Below, piece after piece: positions 57,655 to 64,000 of a DNA stretch of 64,000 bases (position 1 is its first letter; each line of letters opens with the position of its first letter). This DNA is from Gilvibacter sediminis (lineage in GTDB: Bacteria; Bacteroidota; Bacteroidia; Flavobacteriales; Flavobacteriaceae). Under the pieces are notes generated by a model. The model saw nothing but the letters and a program-made list of their open reading frames with translations. It was not told the origin of the DNA and ran no database searches. A program made the position numbers and the translations under genes. The stretch lies in contig NZ_JAQQTE010000001.1 in NCBI RefSeq assembly GCF_028561565.1, forward strand, positions 230,005 through 294,004. The letters run 5' to 3'.

Positions 57655-58016
57655 CCAAATACCGCGACTCTGAACGAGGATTTAGAAAAACAAGCTGGCA
57701 GCTTGGGATAAGAGCTGTGTGGAACAGCAGTGCGGCGCAGCCGAGTGCGAGCTCCACACAGCTGTGGCTGAAGGCAGCGTAGTTTTTCAAATTAGAGTGA
57801 GCGTCGCTAGCGCTTTTTGCTACTTTTTGCCGCAATTGGAAAAAGTAGTTTAAATAAAAGAATATGATAAGGTCAGCAGCACTTGCTGCAACAATTAAAG
57901 ACTGAATTTGAGAGGTCATCTCGATACATTGCTGAACGAAGTTTCATAGAAACCAAACATCCAGTGGATGTTTGAGTGAAGCACCTGCGCTAGCAGCAGG
58001 CCGATTCTATGTCGCC
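57655..58016. repeat. Copy 1 of a ~360-bp dispersed repeat with internal hairpins
   Basis: About 85% identity over the first ~165 nt and 97/97 identity over the terminal segment with 63640-64000; contains inverted repeats AGCTGTGTGGA/TCCACACAGCT and AAACATCC-AGT-GGATGTTT. Confidence 0.85.
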
Positions 58017-58098
58017 ACTCGATGACCGTAACGTAAACCTCCAATTGCCATAAGCAGCGACGCTTTTTTTGGCATAATGATTCGTAAATTTGTGAAGG

Positions 58099-59070
58099 AT
58101 GGAAAAATTCGATGTTCTAATAATTGGAGGAGGCCCAATAGGCATAGCTTGTGGGCTGGAAGCGCAAAAGAAAAACCTAAAATACACCATAATTGAAAAG
58201 GGCTGTATTGTCAATTCGCTCTACAATTACCCAGAGGGAATGAGCTTTTTCTCTACCTCAGAAAAGTTAGAACTCGACGGCATTCCGTTTATCTCTAAGA
58301 ACGCCAAACCGCTTAAGGCCGAGGCCTTAGAATATTACCGCCGTATAGTGACCAGCCGTGATCTGCGCATGCAACTCTTTGAAAAGGTCACTGAGGTAAA
58401 ACGCCTCAACCCCGGCTTTGAAGTACACACCTCCAGAGGCGCTTATTTAGCCGACAATATAGTGGTGGCCATTGGTTTTTATGACCTGCCCAATTTGCTC
58501 AACGTTCCTGGAGAAGAGCTCCCCAAGGTGGCCCACTATTACAACAACCCGCATTTCTATGCCCGCCAAGAAGTGGCCGTTGTGGGTGCAAGCAATTCTG
58601 CAGTAGACGCAGCGCTAGAAATTTACCGTAAAGGGGGAAACGTAACCATGATTATCCGCGGTGACGACATAGGCGAACGCGTAAAGTATTGGGTGCGCCC
58701 AGACATAGTAAACCGCATTGCCGAAGGCAGCATTAAGGCCCATTACAACACCAACATTACCGAGATCTTAGAAGACCGCATTAAACTCCACGGCACGGAA
58801 GGAGATTTTGAATTGCCCAACGACTATGTGCTAGCCCTCACTGGCTACCAACCCAATTTCGCCTTTTTAGAAAACCTGGGCGTGGAACTCTCTAAGGACG
58901 CCTTGCGCAAACCCATTTATAACGAAGCCACTATGGAATCTAACCAGCCCGGCGTATACCTAGCCGGCGTGGTCTGTGGCGGCATGAAAACCAATGAGTG
59001 GTTTATTGAGAATTCTAGGGTTCATGCTCCCATGATCATTGATCATATTCATAGCAAACAGCAATCTTAG
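58099..59070 (+). CDS. YpdA-family FAD/NAD(P)-binding thiol-disulfide oxidoreductase (putative bacillithiol disulfide reductase)
   Basis: Dinucleotide fold VLIIGGGPIG, second Rossmann motif VAVVGASNSA, length ~323 aa. Confidence 0.7.
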   Translation: MEKFDVLIIGGGPIGIACGLEAQKKNLKYTIIEKGCIVNSLYNYPEGMSFFSTSEKLELDGIPFISKNAKPLKAEALEYYRRIVTSRDLRMQLFEKVTEVKRLNPGFEVHTSRGAYLADNIVVAIGFYDLPNLLNVPGEELPKVAHYYNNPHFYARQEVAVVGASNSAVDAALEIYRKGGNVTMIIRGDDIGERVKYWVRPDIVNRIAEGSIKAHYNTNITEILEDRIKLHGTEGDFELPNDYVLALTGYQPNFAFLENLGVELSKDALRKPIYNEATMESNQPGVYLAGVVCGGMKTNEWFIENSRVHAPMIIDHIHSKQQS

Positions 59071-59071
59071 A

Positions 59072-59743
59072 TTACTTATTCCGACTGTAACGACACTTAG
59101 GATAACTATTACAACCATAGAATTCAGTTCCTGCTCTTGGTCCTGATTTAACTGTTCTGACAACTAACGCTGAGCCACATCGAGGACAAGTCTCTTTTGA
59201 TCTATGTCTCTGTCTTAGTGATCTTAAATGATCTCTCTTTTTAAGCGTTGATGTCTTCTGAAAGCTTTTGAGTTTGAAATAAAGCAATTGTAATTCTGCT
59301 TCATTGAATAATAACTTCTTATGAGATTTTATATATCTGCCTAAGGCATAATTTCGGACATTTGGTGGCATTTTAGTCCTGAAACTACAGTTTCCATTGA
59401 AGTAGATTATTGTCTTAATCCTCGAATCATCCACTCCTAAAAATTCTGCTAATACCTTTTTCTGACGGAAGGCTTGCCGCAGCGGATTCTGAAATTGATA
59501 TTTTCTTTTGTAAATGACTTGCGTCCATTTAGCTGAGTCCTCCGAACCAAAAATCCAACCCTTTTTGTTCTTAGTTTCTATGATGAATAACCCAAATGGC
59601 GAGATGACTAAATGGTCTATTTGAGCCGTGCCATTTGAAGACGGAATAATGAGGTTATGAAACCTTTTATAGGTTTTACTGTTGAGCGAAAACCAAAGGT
59701 CTATTGCAGCTCGCTTTTCTCCTATCCAGCCTTTGGAGAGCAT
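59072..59743 (-). CDS. NERD (nuclease-related domain) protein with C-terminal topoisomerase-type zinc ribbon
   Basis: NERD motif (IDHLVISPFGLFIIETKN), C-terminal CPRCGSALV...YGCNSYPKC. Confidence 0.75.
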   Translation of the reverse strand: MLSKGWIGEKRAAIDLWFSLNSKTYKRFHNLIIPSSNGTAQIDHLVISPFGLFIIETKNKKGWIFGSEDSAKWTQVIYKRKYQFQNPLRQAFRQKKVLAEFLGVDDSRIKTIIYFNGNCSFRTKMPPNVRNYALGRYIKSHKKLLFNEAELQLLYFKLKSFQKTSTLKKRDHLRSLRQRHRSKETCPRCGSALVVRTVKSGPRAGTEFYGCNSYPKCRYSRNK

Positions 59744-59776
59744 GGGTTAATTATTATTTGAATACCTCAATTGTAC

Positions 59777-62474: not shown

Positions 62475-62541
62475 TCAGTATATCGTTTGGGTATAAATAG
62501 CAACAGGTTATATATGAGTTTGGAGTAAAATTAGAATTGAG

Positions 62542-63081
62542 TTACAGCGTCTTAAGTACCACTAAGAGTTCGGGAATCTTGTCAACTTGTGTTTCTGTCC
62601 AAAACGTGTAATTAGTGAACTCGCTATCATCGTAACTATTTAACTTGATAGTTAGTCTTCTCTTTTTTTCATAAACAAAATAGGATAGAGTCATTTCATT
62701 CGCCTTAAATATGAACTCTGATGACTTATCCTTGAACTTCAAATCTAGGTTTGGAATTACGTTATCCTCAATGAAAGAGATAAACTCGCTAATTTCCTCA
62801 TACGCAACCCATGCAGTTTTATAGACATCTGGTTTTTTTACATACATGTCTAATTGAAGAGCGACTCTTGTTTCTCCAGTTTTGAGATTTATTACTTCTA
62901 TTGGATAAAACTTTACATATTCTCCTATTCCGGATTTAAATTCTGCTGTTGTTGTCCAATCCTTATTTATTCTAGTAAACTGAGCTTCATCTATAAACTT
63001 TCTCGTCGATGATTCTATGTTTTGACTATAAGAATATCCGATCGATATCATTAGTATAAAGAGAAATATTAAATTTTTCAT
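62542..63081 (-). CDS. Small secreted hypothetical protein
   Basis: Signal peptide MKNLIFLFILMISIGYS; low GC. Confidence 0.45.
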   Translation of the reverse strand: MKNLIFLFILMISIGYSYSQNIESSTRKFIDEAQFTRINKDWTTTAEFKSGIGEYVKFYPIEVINLKTGETRVALQLDMYVKKPDVYKTAWVAYEEISEFISFIEDNVIPNLDLKFKDKSSEFIFKANEMTLSYFVYEKKRRLTIKLNSYDDSEFTNYTFWTETQVDKIPELLVVLKTL

Positions 63082-63091
63082 TAGTTCTATT

Positions 63092-63451
63092 TTAATTGAA
63101 ATTAGGTGCGCAATTCAAGGTTTCATTATATGGTTGTATATATTCCCAAAATGCTTTTCCTGCACTTTCGAGATAATTCATTGAATAATATAATTTGGTA
63201 CTTGAGCTTACTTGATAAATATATTCAGAACAGCTATATCCATTTCCTTTGAAGCAAACAATGGCAAAGTAATAACTGTTGTAGTCGATTGTTAAATCGT
63301 AAAAAGTAACCTTAGAAATAGCAGTGCTAGTATAACTATGATAAGTAGTTCCGTAACTTTTTGATTTTACATATTCCATTAACTCATCACAACTTTGAGA
63401 AAAAGAGTTTAATGAGATTAAAAGCATAGTCGTTAATAGTAAATATTTCAT
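63092..63451 (-). CDS. Small secreted Cys-containing hypothetical protein
   Basis: Signal peptide MKYLLLTTMLLISLNSFS; low GC; start trimmed to the internal Met. Confidence 0.45.
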   Translation of the reverse strand: MKYLLLTTMLLISLNSFSQSCDELMEYVKSKSYGTTYHSYTSTAISKVTFYDLTIDYNSYYFAIVCFKGNGYSCSEYIYQVSSSTKLYYSMNYLESAGKAFWEYIQPYNETLNCAPNFN

Positions 63452-63639
63452 GTACGATATTTTAAAAACCAAAAACTCCCCACCCTCAAATCGTCTAGAC
63501 TCAAGTGATGGGGAGTTTCTTGTCCACCTGTGAAGATAGCAAGAATATTAACAAGTGGTTCATTCATGGTTTAAAGATTGTTTTTTCTTTAGGTTTTTCT
63601 TTGCGGGATTCCGTAATCCATTCACGATTTATAAACGCG

Positions 63640-64000
63640 ACTCCGAACGAGGATTTTGAAAAACAAGCTGGCAGCGCGGGAAAAAAGCTGTGTGGAACAG
63701 CAGCGAGGCAAAGCTAAGCGCGAACTCCGCACAGCTGTGGCTGAGGGCAGCGTAGTTTTTCAAATCAGAGTGAGCATCGCTAGCGCTTTTTGCTACTTTT
63801 TGCCGCGATAGGAAAAATTGCGAAGTGATGTTTTGAAAAAACCAAAAGCCCAGTGGGCTTTTGAACGGAGTAGCCGCGGAAGCGGAAGGCAATCATTTAG
63901 ATGTCATCTCGATACATTGCTGAACGAAGTTTCATAGAAACCAAACATCCAGTGGATGTTTGAGTGAAGCACCTGCGCTAGCAGCAGGCCGATTCTATGT
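63640..64000. repeat. Copy 2 of the ~360-bp dispersed repeat (truncated by the window end)
   Basis: Same ends as 57655-58016 with a divergent ~80-nt core that contains a CCAAAAGCCCAGTGGGCTTTTG hairpin. Confidence 0.85.

Follow-up and report, generated by a model that had tools for sequence, protein, structure and literature searches.

The ypdA locus and its repeats

This analysis concerns a pair of direct repeats in a 64,000-nucleotide (nt) stretch of the Gilvibacter sediminis genome (contig NZ_JAQQTE010000001.1, positions 230,005 to 294,004; hereafter, the window). Each copy is about 370 bp long, and the pair encloses ypdA, a core gene that separates copy 1 from a low-GC island, together with the island itself and its two small signal-peptide genes. 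The GC content of the island is 0.29–0.38, versus about 0.44. A preliminary description of this DNA had placed direct repeats of ~360 bp on either side of ypdA and the island, and a repeat search and BLAST both found them there.

The two copies match in two blocks. The first (57663–57844 versus 63636–63817) is a direct repeat of 182 nt with 89% identity (162/182, BLAST); its similarity had been noted before, but as ~85% over 165 nt. The second (57908–58012 versus 63896–64000), also direct, is 98% identical (105/107, with one gap) and includes a 96-nt string that occurs exactly in just two places, 57917–58012 and 63905–64000, where the chance expectation is 0. Copy 2 is cut by the end of the window; copy 1 runs on as a unit to 58031. 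Between the blocks, the middles of the copies (57845–57905 and 63818–63894) are unrelated in sequence. No further copy of the repeat, not even a weak one, was found in window positions 1–57500, either by BLAST at word size 7 or with a covariance model run with its filters off.

What are these repeats? Both are mosaic arrays of small, hairpin-forming, non-coding intergenic modules that are specific to the lineage, and neither is an attachment (att) site of the island. The module types number at least nine (Table 1). Copy 1 reads P, A, U4, U5 and then U2 enclosing U3, and copy 2 reads A, U4′, U1 and U2 enclosing U3; the two arrays look alike only because modules A–U4 and U2 enclosing U3 are common to both. 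The middles, which had been described as divergent, do differ, but they do so because they are different modules—U5 in copy 1, U1 in copy 2—and not diverged copies of one sequence. The terminus that had been called perfect is indeed exact over 96 nt, but it consists of U3 inside U2. Since the conserved 97 nt (the 5′ half of U2 plus U3) are 96–99% identical in all Gilvibacter strains that carry them, the identity seen here dates no event.

Arrays in related strains

Relatives of the locus were found in a Gilvibacter metagenome-assembled genome (L001; YpdA protein 93% identical), another Gilvibacter chromosome (L003; 76%), two contigs of one metagenome (L081 and L082), one ENA contig (L083), a 350-kb TARA scaffold (L084; 95%), and the lineages of L085–L088 (84%) and L089 (78%). 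Arrays occupy three to four consecutive spacers in one Gilvibacter subclade: mscL–ypdA, island–T9SS gene, T9SS–ABC and ABC–modE (T9SS, type IX secretion system). L001 has arrays in all four, at 9654–10000 (upstream of ypdA), 15110–15854 (island–T9SS268), 16662–16964 (T9SS268–ABC591) and 18741–19504 (ABC591–modE); L084 and L085 have arrays in three spacers each, and L081, L082 and L083 in one each.

Among these strains, the modules are reordered and further ones (Q, R and others) are added, such that the orthologous mscL–ypdA spacer holds three different mosaics in the window, L001 and L082. Inverted modules also occur, namely A (L082 and L084), Q (L001, L081 and L083) and the unit V3 (L085). 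In the window clade, all 11 copies of U1 and U3 are on the same strand. Intact U2 units are made up of two halves that enclose a hairpin of 14–20 nt; U3 takes the place of this inner hairpin in the window, L082 and L084, and stands beside an intact U2 in L001. The start of U1 always falls within the A-tract arm of a T/A-tract hairpin.

All 15 recovered arrays map between mscL and modE, a neighborhood of ~15 kb. No module was present in the flanks of the other fetched loci, and searches of 79 further ypdA neighborhoods from Bacteroidota, amounting to ~1.4 Mb, with two covariance models (R1 and R2) brought up no member. An exact metagenome scan with a U1 23-mer (present in 7/7 U1 copies) returned only L081 and L082, the orthologous spacers of one strain. 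The exact U3 24-mer had no match in the genome contig collection, the nearest genome being one mismatch off, and the patterns for U1, U2 and U3 had none in viral contigs. As far as could be tested, the repeat family is low-copy and bound to the mscL–modE neighborhood.

L003 and L089, which are more distantly related, represent empty sites, in which ypdA is directly beside T9SS268 or ABC591, with neither island nor module. This arrangement is the compact ancestral state. The mscL gene is missing from the compact arrangement of L003. In the window, the mscL open reading frame (ORF; 57004–57525, minus strand) has 173 aa and its orthologues have 150; the upstream 23 codons are not conserved, and the true start is probably an internal Met near 57456.

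Table 1. Array modules and neighboring features in the window; strain labels as in the text
Feature	Position	Strand	Remarks
Module P	57565–57641	+	Also starts the arrays in L001, L081, L082 and L084
Terminator-like hairpin and T-run of P	57575–57598	+	Terminator-like match
T/A-tract hairpin of P, GATAC-T6-CTTGAC-A6-GTATC	57614–57641	+	Found by hairpin scan
Module A, copy 1	57663–57815	+	Imperfect palindrome of ~145 nt, one long rod hairpin
Module U4, intact hairpin CTAC-T5-GCCGCAATTGG-A5-GTAG	57819–57848	+	
Module U5, with hairpin GCAGCACTTGCTGC	57849–57905	+	Homologous to L001 15525–15576; not in copy 2
Module U2, 5′ half, GGTCATCTCGATACA	57912–57928	+	Copy 1
Module U3, copy 1, nested in U2	57929–58010	+	U-family, ~80 nt: P1, H0, H1, H2
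Module U2, 3′ half, GTCGCCACTCGATGACCGTAA	58011–58031	+	Pairs with the 5′ half around U3 (DNA fold)
TAAATTTG, Bacteroidota-type –7 promoter box of ypdA	58085–58092	+	Outside the repeat
ypdA	58099–59070	+	Pfam Pyr_redox_3; homologues named YpdA family bacillithiol disulfide reductase
Low-GC island	59072–63472	–	NERD + Zn-ribbon, PLD-like (DrmC-like), 337-aa membrane protein, HNH, two small signal-peptide proteins
Bidirectional terminator hairpin	63462–63524	.	Bounds the variable site on the right; conserved in L001, L081 and L084
Module A, copy 2	63636–63788	+	
Module U4′	63792–63817	+	3′ arm shortened at the start of U1; same U4/U1 junction in L001, L081 and L082
Module U1 (U-family), middle of copy 2	63818–63894	+	Covariance-model score 103.9 bits
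Module U2, 5′ half, copy 2	63901–63916	+	
Module U3, copy 2	63917–63998	+	Window stops before the 3′ half of U2

A defense-gene hotspot beside ypdA

Homology of the window to L001 and L084 breaks off in the last ~45 nt of ypdA (59027) and picks up again at the terminator hairpin, so that ypdA and this hairpin, rather than the repeats, mark the limits of the variable segment. Strains differ in the final ~15 codons of ypdA, and thus the left junction lies inside the gene. The hairpin on the right is ancestral, and an analogous terminator hairpin is present at the empty site of L003. The variable segment spans 59027–63524 in the window, 10929–15228 in L001, 10929–16183 in L084, 9608–10612 in L081 and 3961–5320 in L085.

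At least five different cargos, mostly of defense type, occupy this site. The window has NERD and Zn-ribbon, PLD-like (DrmC-like) and HNH proteins; L001 has SIR2–HerA and a TIR protein; L084 has an AAA_15/AAA_21 ATPase set; and L081 and L085 have further, different genes. The stretch from the 3′ end of ypdA to the terminator hairpin is a defense-gene hotspot, and an association of the repeat with a variable region is thereby borne out. At four-fold degenerate sites, ypdA diverges between strains by 0.24–0.29, versus 0.38–0.60 for the symporter gene and mscL, and the window ypdA is closer to that of Winogradskyella aurantiaca (81%) than to that of the L003 Gilvibacter (76%). The low divergence and the closeness to W. 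aurantiaca hint that ypdA itself has been exchanged along with the hotspot.

Copy 1 is 1 kb away from the island, upstream of ypdA, and copy 2 does not include the right edge of the hotspot. A set of 50 window ORFs includes no integrase, transposase or Y1 domain (Pfam; PADLOC likewise found no integrase), and the gene tables of the fetched loci hold no transposase or RAYT either. There is no tRNA near the repeats or the island, and ARAGORN found no tRNA or tmRNA at the repeats. An att-type origin predicts a single repeat copy at an empty site; L003 and L089 carry zero. Moreover, the same modules are found in three to four spacers of strains with other islands, and some of these spacers—T9SS268–ABC591 and ABC591–modE in L001—flank no island.

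Signs of recombination at the arrays

Several comparisons bear on how the arrays change. In L084, a direct repeat of 300 nt with 99% identity flanks ypdA and the island, but its modules differ from those of the window pair. Paralogous U1 copies in one strain share variants: G35 in M1 and M2, and G27 in L1a and L1c. Between L082 and L084, there has been a clean loss of U4–U1–U2 between two U2 copies. Window 62514–63617 is 97% identical to L084 15172–16275, versus ~80% for the flanking core genes; this tract comprises both small signal-peptide genes with the spacer next to them, and it ends where the array begins. The 97% match indicates a recent horizontal exchange of the two-gene tract. In L084, the two-gene cassette is situated between two copies of the terminator hairpin, 15086–15127 and 16129–16170.

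The segment between two arrays in L001 (15855–18740, T9SS268–ABC591) is missing at that position in L081 and L084, which is consistent with deletion by recombination between arrays. The missing segment encodes a T9SS-sorted protein of 268 aa and an ABC transporter. The comparisons point to arrays that would undergo homologous recombination or gene conversion and would act as breakpoints of exchange.

Folding, coding potential and known RNAs

U1 and U3 align without gaps over ~80 columns, of which 39 are invariant, and are therefore homologous; we refer to them as the U-family. RNAalifold gave a closing helix (P1), two hairpins (H0 and H1) and a separate hairpin (H2), with compensatory changes in seven pairs. 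When three diverged units from L085 were included, 11/23 pairs had changed on both sides and 98% of cells were paired, versus 35–44% when the partners were slid, although these counts lean toward the structure, the extended alignment (A3) having been fitted to the model. The long-range P1 pairs 8–57 and 9–56 (alignment columns) occur in four complementary combinations. Pairs 3–62 and 34–52 include G–U, which is valid on the plus strand only, since the other strand would have A–C mismatches. The H2 loop of U1 and V1 is GGAA, GUAA or GCAA, with variation at the N of GNRA alone.

In module A plus U4, 9 of the 54 counted pairs are compensatory, mostly relative to a 72–75% diverged inverted copy, and 95.9% of cells are paired, versus 36–47% in slid controls. 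A hairpin type of the form NNNAC-T(4–7)-loop-A(4–7)-GTNNN has seven stem variants across strains, all fully complementary; it is confined to the arrays and occurs twice in the window, both times in copy 1. The folding of copy 1 is significantly stronger than that of shuffled sequence, with z-scores of −3.1 (plus RNA), −2.8 (minus RNA) and −4.6 (plus DNA). The tetranucleotide GTAG precedes H2 in 6/7 U1 copies and also ends U4; it is replaced by GCAC in U3 and V1 and by GCAG in M2, and other T/A-tract hairpins end in GTATC, GTGAC or GGAC.

The ORFs inside the repeat had been judged non-coding from their appearance, and this judgment held up. For the minus-strand ORFs of 103 and 87 aa, module A differs at 20 sites, divided 8:5:7 among the codon positions, and the 72–75% diverged copy shifts the frame. 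A small toxic peptide of the LDR/Sib type was rejected as well, no frame being kept across copies. When the 87-aa pseudo-ORF was compared with 5.8 billion proteins, the sole match was another array copy (P0001, on a 528-nt contig), and protein databases are therefore unusable for counting copies.

Nor do the repeats resemble a described RNA. Rfam gave no match in the repeats at the gathering threshold, nor at E ≤ 10 over 57400–64000, and this includes the Rfam models for the hammerhead and other ribozymes; the junction strands of the U-unit (3, 0 and 1 nt, by eye) do not fit a hammerhead core. A sigma-70 scan of the arrays found 22 sites, versus 19.5 expected from shuffles, and these were no better. 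Of the matches to TAnnTTTG, TAAATTTG, the promoter box of ypdA, alone recurs across arrays; it is conserved in w1, L1a, M1 and T1. Terminator-like hairpins with T-runs are found on the minus strand of U1 and U3, opposite to the strand favored by the G–U pairs. An independent small RNA (sRNA) gene should have a promoter and terminator of its own on the structured strand, and the predicted signals do not provide them. GC skew gave no origin or terminus signal nearby, and neither a literature search nor Rfam turned up a description that matches this modular palindromic repeat family of Flavobacteriaceae.

Comparison with known repeat families

The closest likeness in architecture is to the repetitive extragenic palindromic (REP) sequences and bacterial interspersed mosaic elements (BIMEs) of enterobacteria and pseudomonads. 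REPs are palindromic repeats that are known to sit inside other palindromes and to form clusters in mosaic intergenic regions (PMC3733652). Like them, the hairpin modules of Gilvibacter are extragenic, non-coding, imperfect palindromes that form site-specific mosaics with other short motifs; compensatory change maintains their stems, they have the potential to form terminator-like or mRNA hairpins, and they nest in palindromes (PMC3733652). However, REPs and BIMEs have hundreds of dispersed copies, usually with a RAYT, whereas here there are one to four arrays per genome within ~15 kb and no RAYT in the 50 window ORFs or the gene tables of the fetched loci. The Gilvibacter units are 80–150 nt long, with a multi-helix fold in the U-family, compared with a single hairpin of 20–40 nt, and the GTAG (or CGTC) tetranucleotide that marks one end of the REP palindrome is, as GTAG, kept in some of them but not in others. 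The preliminary description had considered that the repeat might prove to be REP-like, ubiquitous and present in dozens of copies unconnected with variable regions. The REP/BIME-like architecture was found, but not the high-copy dispersal, at least in the window, the metagenome and contig collections and the fetched loci, a scope that falls short of whole genomes.

The BOX elements of Streptococcus pneumoniae (boxA–boxB(n)–boxC) are likewise modular, non-coding intergenic units of variable number with stable predicted structures. BOX, on the other hand, has a fixed A–B–C order and ~100 or more dispersed copies, whereas the Gilvibacter modules are local, vary in order and orientation, and do not resemble BOX in sequence. 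Among the ERIC/IRU, RUP and Correia/NEMIS elements, ERIC (127 bp) resembles module A, a ~145-nt imperfect palindrome that forms one long rod. Unlike these elements, module A has one or two copies per genome, is embedded in arrays with other modules, and showed no terminal inverted repeat with a target-site duplication. The termini of A and U2 are inverted, but no duplication is shared by the flanking sequences of five A copies or by the U1 and U3 junctions, contrary to what a miniature inverted-repeat transposable element (MITE) should show.

In Neisseria, several repeat families (CGTC-1, dRS3 and Correia) are interleaved in large spacers, forming mosaic intergenic regions (PMC3733652). The Gilvibacter spacers are similar in being large and composed of interleaved repeat families; the Neisseria repeats differ in being abundant genome-wide, and some of them serve as phage or insertion sequence (IS) targets, neither of which is shown here. 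The mosaic regions of Neisseria have been linked to recombination and island exchange.

Like the att repeats of islands, the pair is directly repeated and encloses a low-GC accessory segment; it differs in that the repeats do not abut the segment, no integrase is present, the empty site lacks a copy and island-free spacers also carry repeats. Integron attC sites and the repeats of Vibrio (VCR) are also similar, structured, same-orientation repeats between successive genes of a variable region. An integron array was rejected, since there is no intI, no attI and no R″/R′ core motif, and since the genes between the repeats belong to the core, run in both orientations, have their own promoters and are syntenic in repeat-free relatives. 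A Xer/dif-like site was rejected on its architecture.

Origin and possible function of the modules

How did the modules come to be where they are? The explanation that we favor, with a probability of a little under 0.6, is that they are DNA-level modular repeats that spread locally by recombination, and that portable homology at the defense hotspot and terminator-like hairpins are by-products. The family is best read as lineage-specific, low-copy, BIME/BOX-like modular palindromic repeats shuffled by local recombination. Presumably, the modules spread and are homogenized over short range through homologous recombination or gene conversion and through slippage between neighboring arrays, and one palindrome may occasionally come to nest inside another; no transposase is evident in this spread. 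The arrays would thereby supply portable homology and breakpoints that promote the gain, loss and exchange of defense cargo beside ypdA, and the stable minus-strand hairpins, which are predicted to be terminator-like, may insulate adjacent transcription units.

Several observations weigh against this explanation. The copy number outside the neighborhood is only bounded, with 0 copies in 57.5 kb of the window, and a low-copy, local distribution is atypical for REP, BIME and BOX elements. The long-range covariation of P1, with its four pair combinations, the plus-strand-only G–U pairs and the GGAA, GUAA or GCAA loops of H2 are RNA-like features. The recombination is deduced from comparisons, and its product was not seen directly. 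Finally, the four-fold degenerate sites of the symporter gene, mscL and ypdA differ by 24–52% among the window, L001 and L082, but U1 is 92–99% and U3 96–99% identical between those same strains. The spacer next to U3 is only ~83% identical, and the conservation is therefore specific to the unit. Such unit-specific conservation would reflect either purifying selection or repeated re-copying from a conserved master; recent exchange of whole tracts is not a full explanation.

It is also possible, although unlikely, that the modules, chiefly the U-family and A, are functional plus-strand structured RNAs (sRNAs or processed RNAs) and that the arrays are gene clusters. The compensatory pairs of the U-family and its paired fraction relative to slid controls, the four combinations in P1, the plus-strand G–U pairs and the GNRA loops would all fit such RNAs, as would a unit-specific conservation that far exceeds that of neutral sites, the low copy number and the fixed location; however, the pair counts are biased to the structure through the fitted alignment, no Rfam family was matched, no Bacteroidota-type promoter box recurs in the arrays beyond that of ypdA, and the units are not followed by a terminator on the plus strand. 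Their orientation is constant with respect to the chromosome but not to the flanking genes, arrays being found in spacers of all three kinds (divergent, tandem and convergent), and some units (V3, A in L082 and L084, and Q) are inverted. The composition of the arrays also varies freely among strains, which is unexpected for required genes. Thus, the suggestion in the preliminary description of a structured RNA gene family stands as regards conserved folds and many compensatory changes, but not as regards an Rfam match, a promoter motif or a consistent orientation relative to genes.

We consider it improbable that the modules are non-autonomous mobile elements of the REPIN, MITE or PATE type, copied in trans by a transposase such as RAYT or an IS200/IS605-like Y1 enzyme. 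Such an enzyme would recognize folded single-stranded DNA and would copy preferentially into other hairpins. The units are palindromic, with stems kept by compensatory changes, and they nest in hairpin loops or arms at reproducible junctions, and REP insertion into palindromic targets is documented (PMC3733652), but no junction has a target-site duplication, and U3 replaces 14 nt of U2 rather than being cleanly inserted. The shared strand of the 11 U1 and U3 copies of the window clade is what single-strand transposition predicts. In most U1 copies, the H2 stem is preceded by GTAG, which is also the end of U4, yet this tag is not kept across the family (GCAC or GCAG in U3, V1 and M2). Furthermore, neither the window nor any fetched locus has a transposase, and no copy was found beyond the one ~15-kb neighborhood.

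Improbable, too, is the proposal that the ~80-nt U-family unit is a previously undescribed functional nucleic acid structure, either a small RNA or a folded single-stranded DNA signal, that is near-invariant between species. This structure would consist of a three-way junction of P1 with H0 and H1 and of the GNRA-capped H2, and the U-unit would be tied to the ypdA–modE neighborhood. If true, the U-unit would direct or limit the exchange of defense cargo, perhaps by serving as a signal for recombination or processing.

Finally, the direct orientation of the two copies, their bracketing of a low-GC defense island and their 96-nt identical end would suit attL/attR-like repeats, or a recent duplication, made at island integration, but this origin is very improbable and is rejected on the lack of an integrase, recombinase, transposase or tRNA and on the position of copy 1 away from the island edge, besides which the "identical" module is 96–99% identical in other species.

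Other genes in the window

Elsewhere in the window, two adjacent tRNA genes (41641–41790, minus strand) are followed by a gene-poor stretch of ~1.8 kb (42450–44220) with only an SSB gene (43281–43616) and small unannotated ORFs; this stretch may be another accessory segment. A 516-aa protein (33109–34659, plus strand) has a thiol-activated (cholesterol-dependent) cytolysin domain (E = 1e-71), which is unusual for a marine flavobacterium. At 21019–23099 (minus strand), a Methyltransf_33 gene (histidine-specific, EgtD-like) and an FGE-sulfatase/DinB_2 gene (EgtB-like) are adjacent, which suggests a putative ergothioneine biosynthesis pair. These genes adjoin msrA and msrB, and ypdA, of the bacillithiol system, is in the same window.

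Implications

These results remove a false lead, in that the island was not integrated between these repeats. They also document a modular palindromic repeat family in Flavobacteriaceae, one that is unusual among such repeats for its low copy number, its restriction to a few adjacent spacers, its near-invariant units and its multi-helix folds with covariation. With five cargos at one site and recombination tracts that end at arrays, the ypdA locus of Gilvibacter offers a natural case in which to ask whether island turnover is promoted by structured intergenic repeats.

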